From positions 1,344,226 through 1,408,225 of the forward strand of contig OZ244974.1 in the NCBI GenBank assembly GCA_965222955.1: a stretch of 64,000 nucleotides of DNA, in the 5' to 3' direction. Below the pieces are notes generated by a model, which saw only the letters and a list, made by a program, of their open reading frames with translations, had not been told where the DNA came from and searched no databases. Shown here one piece after another: positions 6,154 through 59,387 of this stretch. How positions within the stretch are numbered: position 1 is the stretch's first letter; each line of letters starts with the position of its first letter. A program made the position numbers and the translations under genes. The stretch comes from Hyphomicrobiales bacterium (GTDB lineage Bacteria > Pseudomonadota > Alphaproteobacteria > Rhizobiales > CBDCVD01).

Positions 6154-6465
6154 AATTACTCCGCGCTGGCAGATACGTATCGGCTCCATCAGGTTAACCG
6201 GTTTTAAGCGATTTTGTTCGTAATGGCACAAGTTTCGACCAGCAATCAAGCACGTCCGATGCTCTCGGCACGTGTAAATTTCGCGTTTATGCACACAAAC
6301 GAGTGACGCTGCGGCAAAGATCAACAGCGACCGCAAGTCAATGCGATGGGGGATGTCTTTGTACGACAAGGACAATATCTGGTGAGAGCTTCCCGTTTGC
6401 GGCGATCCGTCATCAGATTGAGTGTAGTGAAACGGGGTTTCCAAAGGGTAAAAGAAATTTTTTTG

Positions 6466-6530
6466 TGCAGTGCAAAAAAATGCTTGACAGAATGGTGCGG
6501 CGCACATATATTGCTCATGTTGCAGTGCAA
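6466..6530 (+). promoter_or_regulatory. Candidate phasin promoter (TTGACA-N17-TATATT) bracketed by two TGCAGTGCAA repeats
   Basis: TTGACA 6484-6489, 17-nt spacer, TATATT 6507-6512. Identical 10-mers TGCAGTGCAA at 6466-6475 and 6521-6530. Confidence 0.5.
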
Positions 6531-6660
6531 TAGAGGTCAAGAGGTCATGAGGTCAACCAGCGCATCGCACCATCCGCAGCCCATTGCCCGGCAAGTTGTA
6601 ATCAGGAAATCACCATCACATGACCGGCGCTCCGGCGCCGAAGAGAAGGAAACCCAAGAG

Positions 6661-7023
6661 ATGTTTACGAACTTTGACGAAATTCAGAAAGTCAGCAAAG
6701 ACAACGTCGAGCGTGGCTTGGCCAGCTTCGGCGCCATCAGCAAAAACACCCAGACAATCGCCGTTGAGACGGCCGACTATGTCAAGAAGTCCGTTGAGAA
6801 CGCCTCGGCCGTGTTTGAGGACATGCTTGCCGCCAAAACCCTCGACAAGGCGGTCGCCCTGCAAAATGACTACGCCCGTTCGGCCTATGAGGATTGCGTT
6901 GCCCAGTTCGCCCGCTTTAACGAGTTGGCCCTGCGCGCCAGCCGCGACGCCTACAAGCCCTACGAAGCTGTTGTTAACAGTGCCACAAAGGCCGCAAAAG
7001 CGAGCACACGTACAACAAAATAG
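6661..7023 (+). CDS. Phasin family protein
   Basis: 120 aa from ATG 6661, MFTNFDEIQKVSKDNVERGLASFGAISKNTQTIAVETADYVKKSVE..., Ala-rich helical and phasin-like. The upstream part of ORF 6346.. is discarded. Confidence 0.75.
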   Translation: MFTNFDEIQKVSKDNVERGLASFGAISKNTQTIAVETADYVKKSVENASAVFEDMLAAKTLDKAVALQNDYARSAYEDCVAQFARFNELALRASRDAYKPYEAVVNSATKAAKASTRTTK

Positions 7024-11293: not shown

Positions 11294-14200
11294 ATGTATT
11301 CCTTTGTTGGCAGACTGTATCTTCTTATAGTGATGGCTTTGGTGCCCGGTGCATTGTTTATGAACGCGGCTCCCGCCGTAGCTGCGAATGTGAGCTGCGG
11401 TGGGGCGAGCGTTGCCAGCCCAAGGCAAAATGATATTGTCTTCATTATTTTTGCAAACACCACTACTTACAAACCCAACGGCGATTACTATGAGTGTGAA
11501 ACCTCTGAGGTGGCGCATGGATCTGTTGATCCGAGAACGCAGACTTTGGCACACAGCGGCGTGCTCATGGTTATTCCTCAAGTTGGTTCCAGTGACGAGA
11601 ACATTTACTTCTCGTTTGCACCGAGTATGCCGGGCGATGGTCAGCCGATCCAGAGGGCCGGGTCATCGTGCAGTAGCGGCACCCTGGACTATTTCCCTGC
11701 TCACGGGCGACAGGATAGTGTGGTGGCGATTAACCTGCCGACAAACAGCAGATGCGATCTCACCATTACAGGCGTCCATGGGAGTGTCTTTACAGGCAAA
11801 CTGCGACGTGTGCGCGATGGATATTCACTCACGGTTATCCGGTTGATCGTTCCGGATCCGGATATGGTCGTTTCCGGTGCTGGCGTGGAGATCAGCAACG
11901 GCGATTCCACGCCGCAGGTAGCGGATAACACGGATTTCGGCTGGGTTGCAGTGGGCGCCACAAAGGAACACACCTTTGAGGTATCCAATAAAAATACCAA
12001 CGGCATGCTGATTTTGCCTATTGATCCTGGCAGCGGCTCGACGCGCGTTCAAATCAGCGACAGTACGAATTTTACCGTCAGCCGGGATTTGCAACCCGCA
12101 GGGCGCGGCAATATCACCCTGCCGTTCAGGATAACGTTCACACCGCGTAGCGCGGGTACCAAAACGGCGACTGTCACAATTCTCAGCAATGACCCCAATA
12201 AAAATCCTTATACCTTTGTCATTCAGGGAGGAAAAAGGACCCTGACGCCGGCAAGCATTGAGTTGGAGCCACAACGGCCCAAAGCAGGGGAGACCGGTGT
12301 CAGAGCGGTTATCAAGTTTAGCGGCCCTCTTACACCGTCACTTTCGGGTACGGCGGATATTACGATCTCCGGAACCGGTGTGGAGAACGGGCCCGTTAAC
12401 TGCCCGAGGGCGGCGAGTTCGAGTTCCCCGTCCGACTATACTTTCATATGTACATTTAACATAGGGGCGGCAGGACGCGATAATATCACCGTTACATTGA
12501 ACAGCTTATCCGATCCCAACTATCAGGGATCAGGCAGCGAGAGGTTCAGCGTCGACGCGGCGGATGCGAGCATTGTGTTCGAACCTGCCCTGAGTTCGGC
12601 GACGGTTGGCACGCCCACGACGATAACGGCGAAGGTGACGGCGCCGGGTGCGGGCAACACGGTACCCGGGAGCGTGACGTTTTCCGGCCTTCCCCCCGGG
12701 GCCAACTGTCCTGGTTCCATTGCGCTGACGCCAACGGCTACGGCCGATGAATTTATCGCCAGTTGCACCTTCACCCCGAGCCAGGCGGGGGTCTACACCA
12801 CCATCGGCGCGGCGTTCACCGCAAGCAGCACGAACTATAATGACGACAGTATCACCGGCCAGAGCCTTAGCGTCGACGCGGCGGATGCGAGCATTGTGTT
12901 CGAACCTGCCCTGAGTTCGGCGACGGTTGGCACGCCCACGACGATAACGGCGAAGGTGACGGCGCCGGGTGCGGGCAACACGGTACCCGGGAGCGTGACG
13001 TTTTCCGGCCTTCCCCCCGGGGCCAACTGTCCTGGTTCCATTGCGCTGACGCCAACGGCTACGGCCGATGAATTTATCGCCAGTTGCACCTTCACCCCGA
13101 GCCAGGCGGGGGTCTACACCACCATCGGCGCGGCGTTCACCGCAAGCAGCACGAACTATAATGACGACAGTATCACCGGCCAGAGCCTTAGCGTCGACGC
13201 GGCGGATGCGAGCATTGTGTTCGAACCTGCCCTGAGTTCGGCGACGGTTGGCACGCCCACGACGATAACGGCGAAGGTGACGGCGCCGGGTGCGGGCAAC
13301 ACGGTACCCGGGAGCGTGACGTTTTCCGGCCTTCCCCCCGGGGCCAACTGTCCTGGTTCCATTGCGCTGACGCCAACGGCTACGGCCGATGAATTTATCG
13401 CCAGTTGCACCTTCACCCCGAGCCAGGCGGGGGTCTACACCACCATCGGCGCGGCGTTCACCGCAAGCAGCACGAACTATAATGACGACAGTATCACCGG
13501 CCAGAGCCTTAGCGTCGATGGGGCGGATGCGAGCATTGTGTTCGAACCTGCCCTGAGTTCGGCGACGGTTGGCACGCCCACGACGATAACGGCGAAGGTG
13601 ACGGCGCCGGGTGCGGGCAACACGGTACCCGGGAGCGTGACGTTTTCCGGCCTTCCCCCCGGGGCCAACTGTCCTGGTTCCATTGCGCTGACGCCAACGG
13701 CTACGGCCGATGAATTTATCGCCAGTTGCACCTTCACCCCGAGCCAGGCGGGGGTCTACACCACCATCGGCGCGGCGTTCACCGCAAGCAGCACGAACTA
13801 TAATGACGACAGTATCACCGGCCAGAGCCTTACCGTCAACAGGGCGGCTGTGCGAGTGGTGACAACTATCGGCCTGGATCCAAGCGAGCCTGAGGTTGAT
13901 CGGCAGGTTACCATGCGCATAACGTTTTCGCGTCCTGCGGGTGTGCCGTTTTCAGGAACCTTCGATATCTCCCTTGCGGGAACCGGCTCGCCAGCCGCCG
14001 CAATCGGCGCCACGGACTGCAAGAGAACCGGCAATATCATTCCTCCACAAGGCGGGACATTTACCTGCACATTTACCCCGACGTCGCCGGGTGAACTGAA
14101 TTTGCAGGTGCTGAACCTGGCCGATCCGCGTTATACGTTTGCCCAAACCACTGTTTCGCTCAGGGTTACGGTTATACGCAATGTCGCCAGGCTGACCACG

Positions 14201-19900: not shown

Positions 19901-20643
19901 ACGAGGACGGGCGCATCGGCGAGATTTTCATCGATATGCACAAGGAGGGGGCGGCGTTTCGCTCCCTGATGAACAACTTCGCCATTGCCGTCTCTTTGGG
20001 ACTGCAATATGGTGTACCTCTTGAGGAATATGTCGATGCCTTTACATTTACCCGGTTTGAGCCTGCGGGTCTTGTACAGGGCAATGAAACGATCAAGAAT
20101 GCGACGTCGATTCTTGACTATATTTTCCGCGAACTGGCTATTTCCTATCTCAGCCGCCATGATCTTGCCCATGTCGATCCGGGCGATATTGGTTCCATGA
20201 CAATAGGTGCTGGCGTGGCGCAGGACAAGCCGCGCACCAAGGGGGTGCCGACCGAGCGGCTTGTTTCAAAGGGGCTGACTCGCGGGCGCGTCGGGGAGAA
20301 AAATCTGATGGTGGTCGGCGGTGCATCGCGGGAAGCGAATCCGGCGCATCTTTTGCAGGCGCGCGCCCGCACCACCCTTGCCGGTACGGCTGCGGTGGTG
20401 AAGGCGGATCAGCCTGTTGGCGATGCCGGCATGCTTGTTGACGGCGATACCGCAGAGGATTCTGAAACGGATGTACCCTTGCGGGCCGATGCGGCGCCGG
20501 AGCCGGCGGACAAGCAGCGCGCCATTGCCCGTATGAAGGGCTATGAGGGAGAGGCTTGTACTGAGTGCGGGAATTTTACGATGGTGCGCAATGGCACCTG
20601 TCTGAAATGCGACACATGTGGCTCCACCAGCGGCTGCAGTTAG
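16912..20643 (+). CDS. nrdJ: Vitamin B12-dependent (class II) ribonucleotide reductase
   Basis: 1243 aa. Typical class II NrdJ sequence throughout, including [21 protein letters not shown] and a C-terminal Cys-rich tail ([28 protein letters not shown]). Confidence 0.95.
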
Positions 20644-20692
20644 TTGAATGTGAAAAAGTCCCCCGGCTTCGCCTCGGTCTGCTTTTCCCGCT
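20644..20692 (+). repeat. Family D/E element, D-end fragment, truncated by the C array
   Basis: ttgaatgtgaaaaagtcccccggcttcgcctcggtctgcttttcccgc begins directly after the nrdJ TAG. Confidence 0.75.
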
Positions 20693-20693
20693 A

Positions 20694-21356
20694 ATACCAG
20701 CGGTATTAGCGCTTTGTACGCGCTGACTTGTGTGTTGTGCTGACAAGACAACGGTTGTAAACCGGGTCAGGAGTCAAACGCAACGCCCCTGTATACCAGC
20801 GGTATTAGCGTTTTGTACGCGCTGACTTGTGTGTTGTGCTGACAAGACAACGGTTGTAAACCGGGTCAGGAGTCAAACGCAACGCCCCTGTATACCAGCG
20901 GTATTAGCGTTTTGTACGCGCTGACTTGTGTGTTGTGCTGACAAGACAACGGTTGTAAACCGGGTCAGGAGTCAAACGCAACGCCCCTGTATACCAGCGG
21001 TATTAGCGTTTTGTACGCGCTGACTTGTGTGTTGTGCTGACAAGACAACGGTTGTAAACCGGGTCAGGAGTCAAACGCAACGCCCCTGTATACCAGCGGT
21101 ATTAGCGTTTTGTACGCGCTGACTTGTGTGTTGTGCTGACAAGACAACGGTTGTAAACCGGGTCAGGAGTCAAACGCAATGCCCCTGTATACCAGCGGTA
21201 TTAGCGTTTTGTACGCGCTGACTTGTGTGTTGTGTTGACAAGACAACGGTTGTAAGCCGGGTCAGGAGTCAAACGCAACGCCCCTGTATACCAGCGGTAT
21301 TGGCTTTTTGTACGCGCTGACTTGTGTGTTGTGCTGACAAGACAACGGTTGTAAAC
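20694..21356 (+). repeat. Tandem array of family C units, exact 99-bp period, 6 full units plus a 69-bp partial
   Basis: ataccagcgg starts at 20694, 20793, 20892, 20991, 21090, 21189 and 21288. Junctions read cccctgtataccagcgg. Confidence 0.95.
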
Positions 21357-21359
21357 TAG

Positions 21360-21624
21360 CTGTAATCTTTCAGCAGGTTGTTCCCGGGACAGGCATACCG
21401 GTAGTGACACCTCTTGCGCCCTTGCCCCCAGGGAGGCCATACCGGGCCATTCATCTGATCATCGCTTTTTTTCGATTTCTCCTGCGCTGTCAAGGGTTTA
21501 AGAACCGCCAGAGGCGGCGCGAAGCGCCCTTGACAACGCAGGATAAATCGAACACCTCTAATGATCAGATGAATGGCCCCCTGCGCCCGAAGGGTTTACC
21601 AGGGACAACCTGTTGAAATTACAG
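21360..21624 (+). repeat. Family B copy carrying a nested F palindrome
   Basis: ctgtaatctttcagcaggttgttcccgggacagg ... ccagggacaacctgttgaaattaca, interrupted by F at 21447-21576. Confidence 0.8.
21447..21576. repeat. Family F cruciform palindrome (130 bp)
   Basis: ccattcatctgatcatcgc...gtcaagggtttaagaaccgccagaggcggcgcgaagcgcccttgac...aatgatcagatgaatgg, a long near-perfect inverted repeat. Confidence 0.85.
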
Positions 21625-29897: not shown

Positions 29898-30104
29898 ATA
29901 CCAGGGGGCTTTGCGTTTGACTCCTGGCTCAGATTAAAACCGCTGTCTTCTCAGCACGATACACAAGTCAGCGTGTACAAAACGCCAATACCGCTGGTAT
30001 TATACCAAGGGGCTTCGCGTTTGACTCCTGACCCGGTTTGAAACCGTTGTCTTATCAGCACGATACACAAGTCAGCGTGTACAAAACGCCAATACCGCTG
30101 GTAT
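29898..30104 (-). mobile_element. Two tandem full-length family C copies sharing TTA
   Basis: tta[taccaggggg...ccgctggta]tta[taccaagggg...ccgctggta]tta. Confidence 0.85.
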
Positions 30105-30706: not shown

Positions 30707-31126
30707 ATGAAAAAATGGTTGTTGCAGATTTTCACCTGGTGGCATGGCCAGACCCTCGGCACGCGCTTTTTGATCTGGCGGCGCGGACGCGCCGTGGGCG
30801 AGGACGCCATGGGCAATCGTTACTACGAGTCCCGCGATAAAACCCGCCGCTGGGTGATCTATGCGCACCAGTGCGAGGCATCGGCGATACCGCCCGGCTG
30901 GCATGGCTGGATGCACCATCGCAGGGACACGCCGCCGGTGGATGAACATGGCAACGACACGTATACCGCCAGGCCCTGGGAAGAGCATCATCAAAGCAAT
31001 CCCACAGGCAGCGCTACGGCGTATCGACCCGCCGGCAGTCTGGCGCGCGGTGGGCTACGGGATCCCCAACAGCGCAACTATGAGCCCTGGTCCCCGATAG
31101 CGCCGGATGAATCGAATATCTCTTAA
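30707..31126 (+). CDS. NADH:ubiquinone oxidoreductase subunit NDUFA12-like protein
   Basis: MKKWLLQIFTWWHGQTLGTRFLIWRRGRAVGEDAMGNRYYESR...PPGWHGWMHHRRDTPP. Start trimmed to ATG 30707. Confidence 0.85.
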   Translation: MKKWLLQIFTWWHGQTLGTRFLIWRRGRAVGEDAMGNRYYESRDKTRRWVIYAHQCEASAIPPGWHGWMHHRRDTPPVDEHGNDTYTARPWEEHHQSNPTGSATAYRPAGSLARGGLRDPQQRNYEPWSPIAPDESNIS

Positions 31127-31179
31127 TTTTATCAGGAAAATCAGACCGAGGCGAAGCCGAGGGACTTTTCACATTCAAC
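31119..31179 (-). repeat. Family D/E element, D-end copy, containing the NDUFA12-like stop codon
   Basis: tctcttaattttatcaggaaaatcagaccgaggcgaagccgagggacttttcacattcaac. TAA at 31124-31126. Confidence 0.7.
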
Positions 31180-31195
31180 AAATCGCAGATATATC

Positions 31196-32395: not shown

Positions 32396-32499
32396 ATACC
32401 AGCGGTATTGGCGTTTTGTACACGCTGACTTGTGTGTCGTACTGACAAGACAACGGTTGTAAACCGGGTCAGGAGTCAAACGCGAAGTCCCTTGGTATA
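32396..32499 (+). mobile_element. MITE family C copy with TAA duplication
   Basis: taa[taccagcggtattggcg...gtcccttggta]taa. Confidence 0.85.
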
Positions 32500-35364: not shown

Positions 35365-35825
35365 TTAGAGCGTGTCAGGTCTTATACCAGCGGTATTGGC
35401 GCTTTGTACACGCTGATTTGTGTATAGTGTTGATAAGACAACGGTTTTAAGCCAAGTCAGGAGTCAAGCGCAAAGTCCCTTGGTATTAATAGAAGCAATT
35501 TTCGTTTCCCGATTGGCGAGGCGATACCCAGGTTCAAGACGGTCGAAGAGCAATGGCGAACCACCTCTCGAGAGCGGCCTGGGCGTGGGCGTCCGCCAAT
35601 CGGCAAACCCGAAGGGACGGACGCTTTTGCTATGGATTTCAGGGCGATCAGCTTTATGGCGTTAGCATTACCCTTGGCAAAACGGGTACAGCTAACGCCA
35701 GGCTGATTCAAGATGAACCTTAAGTCTCTTGCAAACAGCCCCACGATATCCTGCGAGACTTAAAGTTCATCTTGTCGCAAAATCGCTCCGTCAGAATGAT
35801 TCACTTAAGACCTGACACGCTCCAG
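35365..35825 (+). mobile_element. MITE family A long form with a family C copy (35385..35485) nested in its left TIR
   Basis: ttagagcgtgtcaggtcTTA[taccagcgg...cccttggta]TTAatagaagcaattttcg ... tcacttaagacctgacacgctccag. Confidence 0.85.
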
Positions 35826-35950
35826 GTGTAATCTTTCAACAGGGTGTTCCCGGGACGGGCAAATCTGACGTTACCCCTCTTGCGGTCCTTGCCGCAGATG
35901 GCGAGCAGCAAGGCCCCCTGCACCCGATGGGATTTTTGAGAGCAGCCTGT
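35826..35950 (+). repeat. Family B copy, right arm truncated
   Basis: gtgtaatctttcaacagggtgttcccgggacggg...cacccgatgggatttttgagagcagcctgtt. Confidence 0.75.
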
Positions 35951-47127: not shown

Positions 47128-47404
47128 CTAGAGCGTGTCAGGTCTTAATAGAATCAATTCTGTTTCCCGATTGGCGAGGCGAACCACGCCCAAGGCGATC
47201 GAAGAGCGATGGCGACCCATCTCTCGAGAGCGGCCTGGGCGTGGGCGTCCGCCAATCGGAAACCCGAAGGGACGGGCGCTTTTGCACCAACATGAACCTT
47301 AAGTTTCTTGAAAATAGCGCCACTATATCGTGCGAGACTTAAGGTTCATCTTGTCGCAAAATCGCTCCGTCAGAATGCTTCTATTAAGACCTGACACGCT
47401 CTAG
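47128..47404 (+). mobile_element. MITE family A, short form (277 bp)
   Basis: ctagagcgtgtcaggtcttaatagaatc ... gcttctattaagacctgacacgctctag. Inverted relative to the copy at 47890. Confidence 0.9.
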
Positions 47405-47474
47405 GGACTGATTTGTCCTTATTTTATTGGGAAAAATAGACCGAGGCGAAGCCGAGGGACTTTTTCCATTCAAC
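47405..47474 (-). repeat. Family D/E, D-end copy facing the NDUFS4-like gene
   Basis: ggactgatttgtccttattttattgggaaaaatagaccgaggcgaagccgagggactttttccattcaac. Confidence 0.8.
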
Positions 47475-47498
47475 AAAATCAGACGCAGGAAAGGTGCA

Positions 47499-47813
47499 AT
47501 GACGGCTCGCATTTATCGTCCGGCAAAGACCGCCATGCAATCCGGGCGGCGCAAGAGTTCGCGCTGGCTTTTGGAGTATGAGCGGCAGACACCCATGCAT
47601 GTTGATCCACTGATGGGATGGCAGGGCTCGTCGGATATCTCGGGTCAGGTTCGCTTGACGTTTTCCTCGCGCGCTGCTGCTGAAGAGTATGCCAGGCGTC
47701 ACAATCTGGATTATACGCTCATTGATACGCCGCCGGGTGAAGGTCGCAGCCGGCGCGGCGTATCATATGCGGATAACTTTCGCCACGATCGCAAGATCCC
47801 GTGGACACATTGA
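47499..47813 (+). CDS. ETC complex I subunit conserved-region (NDUFS4-like) protein
   Basis: 104 aa. MTARIYRPAKTAMQSGRRKSSRWLLEYE...DPLMGWQGSSD...LTFSSRAAAEEYARRHNLDY. Start trimmed to ATG 47499. Confidence 0.85.
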   Translation: MTARIYRPAKTAMQSGRRKSSRWLLEYERQTPMHVDPLMGWQGSSDISGQVRLTFSSRAAAEEYARRHNLDYTLIDTPPGEGRSRRGVSYADNFRHDRKIPWTH

Positions 47814-47816
47814 TGA

Positions 47817-47889
47817 GTTGAATGTAAAAAAGTCCGTCGGCTTCGCCTCGGTCTGCTTTTTCCCGATGAACACAAGAACAAATCAGTCC
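47817..47889 (+). repeat. Family D/E, D-end of a full element that continues at 48245 after the A insertion
   Basis: gttgaatgtaaaaaagtccgtcggcttcgcctcggtctgctttttcccgatgaacacaagaacaaatcagtcc. Starts 3 nt after the stop codon. Confidence 0.8.
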
Positions 47890-48244
47890 CTAGAGCGTGT
47901 CAGGTCTTAATAGAACCATTCTGACGGAGCGATTTTACTATAGATTTCAGGGCGATCAGCTTTATGCGTTTCGCATTACCCTTGGCAAAATGGGTACAGC
48001 TAACGCCAAGCTGATCTAATATGAACCTTAAGTCTCGCAGGATATAGTGGGGCTATTTTCAAGAGACTTAAGGTCCATATTGGTGCAAAAGCGCCCGTCC
48101 CTTCGGGTTCCCGATTGGCGGACGCCCACGCCCAAGCCGCTCTTGAGAGATGGGTCGCCATCGCTCTTCGATCGCTTTGAGCCTGGGTATCGCCTCGCCA
48201 ATCGAGAAACAGAATTGCTTCTATTAAGACCTGACACGCTCCAG
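47890..48244 (-). mobile_element. MITE family A, long form (355 bp, with G), inserted in the D/E element
   Basis: ctagagcgtgtcaggtcttaatagaaccattctgacgg ... gcttctattaagacctgacacgctccag. Confidence 0.9.
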
Positions 48245-48459
48245 GGCGGCCCGGCGGACAGGTTTGGCATCCATGCTGATCAATCATGACCGTTGGTCAT
48301 GATTGGAAATGGCAAGGTATTGCCCACAAATGCGCCAAAACCTTGCAATAAAGCGAGGAGGAAACAAAGCGCCGCGCCTTCTTGAACTTTGTTTTCTCAT
48401 TGTTTCAGATGAAGAAAAGTACACGGAGTGTAGCGAAGCATTTTTCTTCACGATCAACT
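48245..48459 (+). repeat. Family D/E, middle and E-end (H-I-E part), ends 6 nt before tRNA-Arg
   Basis: ggcggcccggcggacagg...atcatgaccgttggtcatgat...gttttctcattgtttcagatgaagaaaagtacacgg...tttttcttcacgatcaact. Confidence 0.75.
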
Positions 48460-48465
48460 GACGAT

Positions 48466-48542
<77 letters not shown>

Positions 48543-48674
48543 GATGTGCCGTTTGTTGCTATACCTCCATTTCGTCTTGCGGGTCACTTTGCTTGAAGGC
48601 GACGGGCTTGGGCGGTTTTCTCTCTTTCGCCGTGGGTGTTGGCAGTTCGGACGCCACTTAGCAATCACCACCCA

Positions 48675-48864
48675 TGACACGCTCCAGGAACCGCCCAAAG
48701 GTGCGCCGATCCATGATCTGGAATTCACTCTGGGGGGCCGACAAACCGTACAACGCCTGCAGCACCAGCACCTTGAACATCATGACGCTGTCAAATGGTG
48801 GTCTGCCGCCCTGAGGGCCGGATTTATAATCGAGGGCGGCATTCAGACTGTCGCGAAATATCTT
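48675..48864 (-). pseudogene. IS5-family transposase fragment (second part of the N-terminal DUF772-like domain), 3'-truncated
   Basis: Hand translation gives IFRDSLNAALDYKSGPQGGRPPFDSVMMFKVLVLQALYGLSAPQSEFQIMDRRTFGRFL. Homology stops at a 14-nt family A TIR tip (tgacacgctccagg, 48675-48688). Confidence 0.7.
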
Positions 48865-49015
48865 GTTGAATGCGAAAAAGTCCCTTGGTTTGGCCTCGGT
48901 CTACTTTTTCCCAATAAAATAAGGACAAATCAGTCCCTGGGGCGTTCCGGCGGACTGATTTGGCATTCATATTGACCGATCATGATCAATGGCCATGATC
49001 GGAAATTGCAAGGCT
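48865..49015 (+). repeat. Family D/E element, D-end plus H part (left portion of the copy inserted in the transposase gene)
   Basis: gttgaatgcgaaaaagtcccttggtttggcctcggtctactttttcccaataaaataaggacaaatcagtccctgg ggcgttccggcggactgattt...ccgatcatgatcaatggccatgatcgg. Confidence 0.8.
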
Positions 49016-49519
49016 ATACCAGCGGTATTGGCGTTTTGTACGCGCTGACTTGTGTGTCGTGCTGATAAGACAACGGTTGTAAACCAGTTCAGGAGTCAAA
49101 CGTAAGTCCCTTGTATACCAGCGGTATTGGCGTTTTGTACGCGCTGACTTGTGTGTCGTGCTGATAAGACAACGGTTGTAAACCAGTTCAGGAGTCAAAC
49201 GTAAGTCCCTTGTATACCAGCGGTATTGGCGTTTTGTACGCGCTGACTTGTGTGTCGTGCTGATAAGACAACGGTTGTAAACCAGTTCAGGAGTCAAACG
49301 TAAGTCCCTTGTATACCAGCGGTATTGGCGTTTTGTACGCGCTGACTTGTGTGTCGTGCTGATAAGACAACGGTAGTAAACCAGTTCAGGAGTCAAACGC
49401 AAAGCCTCTTGGTATTATACCAGCGGTATTGGCGTTTTGTACACTCTGACTTGTGTGTCGTGCTGATAAGACAATGGTTGTAAATCAGGTCAGGAGTCAA
49501 ACGCAAAGCCCCTTGGTAT
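49016..49519 (+). repeat. Tandem array of 5 family C units (three 99-bp junctions, one full-length junction with TTA)
   Basis: ataccagcgg starts at 49016, 49115, 49214, 49313 and 49417. The array sits inside the D/E element. Confidence 0.95.
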
Positions 49520-49657
49520 TATGCACAAATGCGCCAAAACCTTGCAATACGCCCAGGCGAAAACAAAGCGCCGCGCCTACTTGAGCGTTGTTTTCTCATT
49601 GCTTCAAATGAAGAAAAGTACACGAAGAGGAGCGAAGCACCTTTCTTCACGATCAAC
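49520..49657 (+). repeat. Family D/E element, I-E part (right portion of the same copy)
   Basis: tgcacaaatgcgccaaaaccttgcaata...gttttctcattgcttcaaatgaagaaaagtacacgaag...cacctttcttcacgatcaac. Confidence 0.8.
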
Positions 49658-49792
49658 TATCTCGAAGTCAACCACGCGCAGCAACGGCTCCAGCGGATCG
49701 CTTGTGTCGCTCAAGCGCCGATACCGATCATCAGGATCAAAAAAATCCCCGCTGAGCAGGCATTGAACCCTCCGAAGCTCTTTCCAATTCAA
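49658..49792 (-). pseudogene. IS5-family transposase fragment (N-terminus)
   Basis: MNWKELRRVQCLLSGDFFDPDDRYRRLSDTSDPLEPLLRVVDFE from ORF 49604..49792. Its continuation lies in the E-end repeat. Confidence 0.65.
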
Positions 49793-50003
49793 ATCACCAA
49801 CGGTGGATCATAAATCAACAAAAATGATCAGATTTATCAGAGCGTCCAGCCGGGAACCGCCAAGTCCTGCAGCTTGTGTCCGTTGTCGGGCCAAAAGGGT
49901 GCTGCGGCACGCTCGAACGGGAACGGGCAGCCGCCGTCTGGCTACACCGATGCTGCATATCTGCGCTGTGCGGTTTTTTGCATCCGCATAGCTGGCAACG
50001 GAA

Positions 50004-59001: not shown

Positions 59002-59064
59002 AGTTGATCGCGAAGAGAGGTGCTTCGCTCCGCTCCATGTACTTTTCTTCATTTAAAACAATGA
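59002..59064 (-). repeat. Family D/E, E-end fragment in reverse orientation (host of the next element)
   Basis: agttgatcgcgaagagaggtgcttcgctccgctccatgtacttttcttcatttaaaacaatgag. Confidence 0.7.
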
Positions 59065-59290
59065 GTTGAATGTGAAAAAGTCCCTCGGCTTCGCCTCGGT
59101 CCACTTTTTCCCAATAAATAAGGACAAATCAGTCCCTGGGGCGGCCCGGCGGACTGATTTGGCATTCATATTGACCGATCATGACCAATGGCCATGATCG
59201 GAAATCGCAAGGTTCTACACGCAAATACGCCAAAACCTTGCAATAAGCCCAGGCGAAGACAAAGCGCAGCACCTTTCTTCACGATCAAAC
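59065..59290 (+). repeat. Family D/E element, nearly complete (internal deletion in the E part), flanked by acaatga(g)
   Basis: gttgaatgtgaaaaagtccctcggcttcgcctcggtcc...aaatcagtccctgg ggcggcccggcggactgattt...ccttgcaataagcc...cacctttcttcacgatcaa. Confidence 0.75.
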
Positions 59291-59305
59291 AATGAGAAAA
59301 CTGAG

Positions 59306-59387
59306 ACCAAGAAGATGCGGCCCCTTGCCACAGATGGCCACCAGCACCCGATGGGTTTACCAGGGACAATCTGTTGAAAGATCACAT
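59306..59387 (+). repeat. Family B right half, ending at the rpmF stop
   Basis: gatgcggccccttgccacagatggccaccagcacccgatgggtttaccagggacaatctgttgaaagatcacat, then ctag. Confidence 0.75.

Follow-up and report, generated by a model that had tools for sequence, protein, structure and literature searches.

Introduction

The MITEs of bacteria, among them Correia of Neisseria, RUP of Streptococcus, Nezha and Chunjie, have been reviewed (PMC3184786). In BrickBuilt of Porphyromonas gingivalis, a MITE is combined with a minisatellite, the 23-nt repeat of which is intrinsic to the element (PMC4596501). In Drosophila, insertion-site preference leads to head-to-tail dimers, one of which expands to an array (McGurk and Barbash 2018, PMC5932611).

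The locus described here lies in the window, i.e. the whole 64-kb stretch of DNA that was analysed, and was confirmed to be a decayed IS5-type transposase gene with a D/E mini-element that carries a short tandem array of family C. D/E (~290 bp) and C (101 nt) resemble the bacterial MITEs in being short, non-coding, multicopy elements with terminal inverted repeats and short target duplications; both are also predicted to be strongly structured and are mostly intergenic. C is similar to Correia and RUP in its size and its TA-containing target. In contrast, D/E and C have no sequence similarity to described elements in plasmids, JGI metagenomes, Rfam and the literature, and D/E is unusual in its long (~50 nt), hairpin-containing terminal repeats.

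Like BrickBuilt, D/E with its C block is a MITE with a spacer-less tandem array inside. However, the repeat is here a foreign MITE with inverted ends and target repeats of its own that also occurs singly, and, contrary to an intrinsic minisatellite, the array is missing from the other D/E copies. The C dimers of dissimilar units and the arrays of 3–7 copies fit the scheme of the Drosophila transposons, although that case concerns kilobase elements in eukaryotic chromatin and the present one 101-nt elements in a bacterium, with arrays of at most ~0.7 kb. The interrupted gene shares with the IS5 family (NF033581) the DUF772 domain, an IS5_4 match and the left-end motif GGACRCYCTGAAAAACC, which is common to the remnant and the intact L002 element, and differs from the family in having no DDE domain and no right end, so that no inverted repeats or target duplication are recognisable.

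Results

The split IS5-family transposase gene

Two minus-strand pieces were located, which together comprise the first ~93 of roughly 370 transposase codons. The gene, its lesions and the neighbouring tRNA gene are the following:

49658..49850, minus strand: 5' piece of the IS5-family remnant, with left end GGACGCTCTGATAAATC..., leader, true ATG at 49763..49761 and codons to ...VVDFEI
49739..49745, minus strand: A7 run (T7 on the coding strand, T6 in L001), +1 frameshift eight codons past the ATG
48684..48858, minus strand: second piece of the IS5-family remnant, FRDSLNAALDYKSGPQGGRPPFDSVMMFKVLVLQALYGLSAPQSEFQIMDRRTFGRFL (Pfam DUF772, 36.5 bits, and homologue alignment)
48672..48685, minus strand: family A MITE tip GGAGCGTGTCAtGG, abutting the CTGG target in the transposase gene (full A element in L001)
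48466-48542, plus strand: tRNA-Arg(TCT), starting 6 nt after D/E copy 2, with 129 nt between it and the A tip

The minus-strand ORF 49792..49661 ends with ...DPLEPLLRVVDFE, and the minus-strand frame 48861..48685 reads from IFRDSLNAALDYKSGPQGGRPPFDSVMMFKVLVLQALYGLS to RFL (full reading IFRDSLNAALDYKSGPQGGRPPFDSVMMFKVLVLQALYGLSAPQSEFQIMDRRTFGRFL). The downstream piece alone matched Pfam DUF772 (PF05598) with 36.5 bits, and the reconstructed peptide matched it with an E-value of 1e-8; the scores were 35–36.5 bits against the cut-off of 23.1, and the match covered profile positions 1–43 of 74, up to the truncation. The N-terminal piece on its own gave no Pfam match. The joined peptide matched NCBIfam IS5_4 over residues 35–103, spanning the junction at residues 44/45. 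The score with this profile (NF033581, transpos_IS5_4) was 38.8 bits against the cut-off of 140 (E = 6.8e-10), only profile positions 3–69 of 285 being present.

Among the 70 DUF772 proteins obtained by protein search, P0023 (89% identity) and P0001 (87%) were closest; both contain contiguous RVVDFEIFRDSL, and the homologues read VVDFEIFRDSL without interruption. The source of P0023 is a 3.5-Mb metagenome-assembled Hyphomicrobiales chromosome, OZ245032.1 (loci L001 and L018). In the DNA comparison, 48859..49657 (799 bp, the 794-bp insert plus one TATCT) was removed from the window and the result was aligned to L001. From 49850 to 48675 (~380 nt), the alignment was gapless at the junction, with small indels elsewhere, and the 30 nt across the excision junction (GACTTCGAGATATTTCGCGACAG) were 100% identical to L001. 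The second remnant copy in the OZ245032.1 genome, L046, was also uninterrupted at the D/E site. With BLASTP, the repaired peptide aligned without gaps and with 68% identity to residues 1–93 of L002, an intact 370-aa transposase of a Paracoccaceae genome that contains both DUF772 and DDE_Tnp_1, the latter at residues 212–357. The central claims of the preliminary description, that an IS5-like transposase gene is split and that removal of the insert rejoins its halves in frame, were thus borne out by the profile matches, the similarity to L002 and the empty TATCT site, with contiguous ...DFEIFRDS..., in L001 and L046.

The N-terminus proposed earlier, 'MNWKELRR' (MNWKELRRVQCLLSGD), turned out to be spurious, the first ~17 residues of that TTG-start ORF being leader and out-of-frame sequence. 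The ORF began at the spurious TTG because the A7 run shifts the frame. According to the L001 alignment, the true start is at 49763 (ATG CCT GCT CAG CGG GGA TTT TTT...), and the L002 protein reads QRGFFD in frame where the window gene is frameshifted. The +1 frameshift of the T-run is an additional lesion in the remnant.

The IS homology starts at ~49850 with GGACGCTCTGATAAATC, similar to GGACACCCTGAAAAACC at the left end of the L002 element. Comparison with the homologous L001 and L002 sequences thus identifies the left end of the remnant; the right end is deleted. The C-terminal DDE_Tnp_1 domain is absent, as the gene stops at codon 93, at the family A tip. About 25% of the transposase gene survives in a frameshifted, interrupted and truncated form; the fragment is a pseudogenised IS5-family member and not an active one. 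The derivation of A, C or D/E from this IS5-like element was rejected because its left end, GGACGCTCTGA..., is unlike all their termini.

The 3' truncation and the family A tip

At its end, the gene reads ...CGG TTC CTG G and is followed by AGCGTGTCA tGG (48672-48687). At the identical position of L001, CGGTTC CTAG is followed by AGTGTGTCAGGTCTTAATAGAA, with which a complete family A MITE (6283-6842) begins. The 14-nt tip is therefore genuine, as had been proposed from the window alone, and its distance from tRNA-Arg, given before as about 130 bp downstream, was measured to be 129 nt. The A terminus (AGAGCGTGTCAGGTC) occurs ~31 times in the 64-kb window, compared with 1.3 expected by chance, and the family A elements are flanked by the CTAG-like tetranucleotides CTAG, CTAA or CCAG. 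In PLSDB, family A gave only weak (~73%) partial matches, to the A interior, in Phyllobacterium and Aminobacter plasmids, a hint that the host may belong to the Phyllobacteriaceae.

All three known remnant copies (window, L001 and L046) end at the same CTAG/CTGG and D/E is found only in the window copy, which makes the A junction older than the D/E insertion. The flanks of the three copies are non-syntenic, and therefore the remnant together with its A junction was itself duplicated or moved. The truncated remnant seems to have propagated after its death. Orthology of the window and related-genome copies was considered and rejected, as they share no unique flank. Both OZ245032.1 copies (L001 6001-6302 and L046 10003-10237) have a 5-nt GTCAT duplication, causing a frameshift, which is absent from the window, and in L046 an IS481-like element sits at the CTAG that ends the remnant.

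The D/E element

The inserted element, its boundaries and the other colinear copies in the window are listed below:

48864..49657, plus strand: D/E-family MITE, 794 bp with cargo and ~290 bp without (empty site in L001 and L046)
48864-49016 and 49519-49657: left and right D/E arms, each including its own copy of the C target repeat
48859..48863, unstranded: left copy of the D/E target duplication TATCT (from the sequence and the L001 alignment)
49658..49662, unstranded: right copy of TATCT (AGATA on the coding strand; single GAGATA in the relative)
47817-48459: D/E copy 2, split by a family A MITE at ~47890-48244, the E part starting at 48245
59064-59289: D/E copy with an internal deletion of ~65 nt, nested in an inverted E fragment

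The coordinates given earlier for the 794-bp insert and its two TATCT repeats agree with the sequence. The termini of the insert are tGTTGAATG...CACGATCAAC, the right one also written as ...CGATCAAC(t), and the motif GTTGAWYGTGAARAAAG is present at both ends, with 12 matches in the window against 0.6 expected. The ends form imperfect inverted repeats of ~45–50 nt with a hairpin in each. Their inverted similarity scores were 11–15, compared with a shuffle mean of 2.8 (sd 1.6) and a best single shuffle of 10–12. The predicted single-strand folding was far stronger than that of shuffled sequence (z = -5.5). As to coding capacity, only chance ORFs of 45 aa or less were present.

The three colinear D...E copies of the window have pairwise identities of 84–92%. 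Their flanking repeats are TATCT/TATCT at the present locus, CAATG/CAATG at 59064-59289 and TGATG/TGACG at 47817. The true target duplication may be 4 bp (ATCT, AATG) instead of 5 bp, because nearly all D/E ends read WGTTGA...TCAACW. Since one insertion within a duplicated target delivered both D and E, these are the two ends of one mobile unit, and the three colinear copies agree with what had been suggested in this respect. The copies at 48245 and 59136, previously cited as uninterrupted references, are intact at the C insertion point, but the first is split by A and the second lacks ~65 nt.

Solo D modules of 50–80 nt occur in either orientation at 20642, 31126, 44072 and 47396, and further terminal fragments exist; we read the solo modules as terminal-repeat remnants. 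Two of them, 47396-47476 and 31126-31181 (minus strand), are inverted and end 22 and 15 nt upstream of the ATGs at 47499 and 31197, respectively, with similar flanks (CATTCAACAAAATC.G). The genes that follow could obtain promoter or leader sequence from such modules.

No autonomous IS with D/E ends was found in the window, the 81 fetched loci, the PLSDB plasmids or the JGI metagenomes. The PLSDB plasmid search gave no match to D/E or C, neither the left end of D/E nor that of C had any match in the JGI metagenome scans, and the literature search on the terminal sequences gave chance primer matches only. In Rfam, only tRNAs were matched at gathering and permissive thresholds and D/E and C were not, so that the candidacy of D/E or C as an RNA gene was dropped. 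By the operational definition D/E and C are MITEs, the parent IS not being found in the data searched, and judging from their sequences they probably represent two previously undescribed MITE families.

The family C block inside D/E

The block of 502 bp has the order CTA, 3 x 99 nt, 101 nt, TTA, 101 nt, TTA:

49014..49016, unstranded: left target repeat CTA, with its partner TTA at 49519-49521
49017..49313, plus strand: three identical 99-nt C units, head-to-tail and without spacer (100% pairwise identity; right repeats shortened, …CCCTTG-TA)
49314..49414, plus strand: fourth C unit, complete 101 nt, followed by the TTA spacer 49415-49417 (94% identity to units 1–3)
49418..49518, plus strand: fifth C unit, complete 101 nt, with TTA on both sides (91–93% identical to the other units)

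Tandem Repeats Finder reported a 99-bp unit with 5.0 copies at 49015-49515. Units 1–3 lack two nucleotides, one of which is the G of the right end. The fourth unit differs from them by one base over most of its length; the differences cluster in the last 17 nt, where, unlike units 1–3, it has an intact right end. The divergence of the fifth unit suggests a separate insertion. The earlier description of five C units at a YTA site thus held for the number of copies and the site, but not for a uniform array, as four units are closely related and one, beyond the TTA, is divergent. This composition would fit a double insertion with local amplification, in which only four of the five units are the amplification product. 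An ORF of 138 aa through the array was rejected as a gene; by our estimate, with a 99-nt (33-codon) period, one or more of the six frames will be open by chance about three times out of four.

Family C is a 101-nt element with the ends TACCAGCGG.../...CCYTGGTA (left end also TACCAGCGGTAT...), and 8 complete 101-nt units with terminal inverted repeats were found. Most loci have TAA/TAA or TTA/TTA as flanks, and two have CTA/TTA. The copy at 35385 lies in known A sequence at GGTC-TTA-ATAGAA, by which the C target is defined. In D/E, the insertion point is GCAAGG-YTA-TGCACAAA, compared with GCAAGGTTCTACACGCAAA and GCAAGGTATTGCCCACAAA in the uninterrupted copies. At 29899-30103, two dissimilar units (91% identical) are joined through a shared TAA, and L001 contains a C-like dimer inside its A element. 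Together with the pair at 49314-49518, these dimers point to repeated side-by-side insertion.

The second C array

The other C array of the window, 20695-21359, consists of 6.7 x 99 nt and is found in another D module, at another position of the module. It is unlinked to the array at 49017-49313, and both have the same exact 99-bp period and the same degenerate, spacer-less junction. The two arrays are 89–91% identical to each other, which is no closer than their identity to the single copy at 32397 (91–92%). The right end of the 20695 array was destroyed by another insertion. The common 99-nt junction may stem from a form that arose once, with arrays being able to move, or may be made reproducibly.

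The region 20642-21400 is a second three-level nesting: the D-module tip 20642-20692 is interrupted at TAA by the 6.7-unit array, and a MITE with an end (CTGTAATCTTTCAGCAGGTTGTTCC) similar to IS481-type inverted repeats cuts the last unit of this array at CTAG.

Discussion

The locus as a whole is very probably an IS5-family relic which a succession of transposon insertions has inactivated and which no longer has a function. In the first step, a family A MITE, with IS5-type ends AGAGCGTGTCAGG and CTAG-like 4-bp targets, inserted into CTGG after codon 93, as the A junction of the remnant shows. The greater part of A would subsequently have been deleted together with the remainder of the gene, leaving a tip of 11–14 nt. 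In the second step, the ~290-bp non-coding D/E element with terminal inverted repeats inserted between codons 34 and 35 and duplicated (T)ATCT, as the empty sites show. Mobilisation of D/E in trans, presumably by a DDE transposase absent from the window, is assumed.

In the third step, the 101-nt C MITE, which targets T(A/T)A, would have inserted into the YTA within D/E; the nested structure is directly visible, and its placement after the second step is the probable order. A second C of a different lineage would then have landed head-to-tail at the shared TTA. In the fourth step, unequal recombination or replication slippage on the tandem pair may have produced three identical 99-nt copies with a degenerate junction. 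Recombinational amplification is favoured because units 1–3 are 100% identical and the edges of the array are more divergent. Four observations stand against this history: no autonomous partner of D/E or C was found, the three known remnant copies end at the same CTAG/CTGG in spite of their non-syntenic sites, the repeats CTA and TTA at the flanks of the C block differ from a perfect duplication, and the unusual junction common to the two arrays is not predicted by simple independent slippage.

The last observation bears on a different origin of the arrays, namely that they are mobile as arrays or are made by the transposition machinery and not by host recombination after a double insertion. 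Some IS families form tandem-dimer intermediates with reactive head-to-tail junctions. The period, the shortened right end and the lack of spacer are shared by two unlinked arrays, which lie at different positions in different D/E-family copies, and tandem forms are present at 3 of ~10 C loci as well as in the genome of the relative. However, the arrays are no closer to each other than to a single copy, so that common ancestry is not demonstrated; the destroyed right end of the 20695 array leaves no target duplication to compare, and a transposase for family C is not known. We consider this origin rather unlikely. An extension of it, in which family C is a bacterial case of a transposon turning into a satellite, is doubtful: the 101-nt MITE would insert preferentially beside its own copies and the degenerate 99-bp form would propagate, which may proceed by movement of multi-unit arrays or through a reproducible, transposase-made junction. 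If true, it would explain the common period and junction of the two unlinked arrays.

The relative order of events was also part of the preliminary description. The nesting is real, but the order is less firm than proposed, as D/E with its C block could have transposed as one piece. D/E would then have carried the C block already at its insertion and a 794-bp composite MITE would have moved as a unit. The locus itself offers no means of dating C against the D/E insertion, D/E-family sequence adjoins C or C arrays at 3 of ~10 C loci, and there are known MITEs, e.g. BrickBuilt (PMC4596501), which contain internal tandem repeats and move as units. In contrast, two other full D/E copies have no C at the YTA site, the other D-associated C insertions occupy different D positions, and the 100% identity of units 1–3 indicates a very recent change as compared with D/E copies that differ by 8–16%. 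Movement of a ready-made composite is therefore quite improbable, and insertion of D/E first and of C afterwards is the most economical reading.

The view that two unrelated ORF fragments flank a repeat cluster by coincidence or through an assembly error, so that the gene only looks split, is practically ruled out: repeat-rich regions are prone to misassembly and the N-terminal piece has no Pfam match when taken alone, but chance is refuted because the excised DNA aligns over ~380 nt to an independent genome, without a gap across the excision point, and the profile match spans the junction, and identical 5-nt repeats lie exactly at the inverted termini of the element.

The nested locus serves as a natural transposon trap, which provides the exact ends of two MITE families and a target duplication. 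The ends and the duplication are fixed since the insertion lies in a gene that can be recognised and of which an uninterrupted relative exists. The D and E repeats, catalogued separately, are one element, which helps to annotate this repeat-rich genome. A relative chronology is also obtained, the A insertion being common to the related genome and the D/E and C events being seen only in the window genome. Otherwise, the locus is the expected debris of MITE proliferation and ordinary in a repeat-rich bacterium; only the array-forming tendency of family C has a wider reach.

Small repeated sequences make up ~16.5% of the 64-kb window, and nesting is the rule in it. Other nestings are C within A at 35366-35826, A within D/E at 47817-48459 and D/E within E at 59003-59340. 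The GC content is 57% in the window and ~47% in D/E and C, and CTAG occurs only 24 times in 64 kb. The frequency of nesting is probably due to the CTAG and TWA targets being rare in the 57% GC genome and common in the 47% GC MITEs. Insertions into dead elements are harmless to the host, which is plausibly another driver of nesting.

At 47817-48466, the D/E copy with the nested A fills the gap from the stop codon of an NDUFS4-like gene (gene end 47813) to tRNA-Arg. Unless the tRNA is transcribed together with the gene upstream of it, any promoter of its own must be located within the repeats. At 12548-13837, a 321-bp tandem repeat of 4.0 copies with 99% identity was observed; its period is a multiple of 3, and it probably codes for a repeat-domain protein, unrelated to the MITEs.
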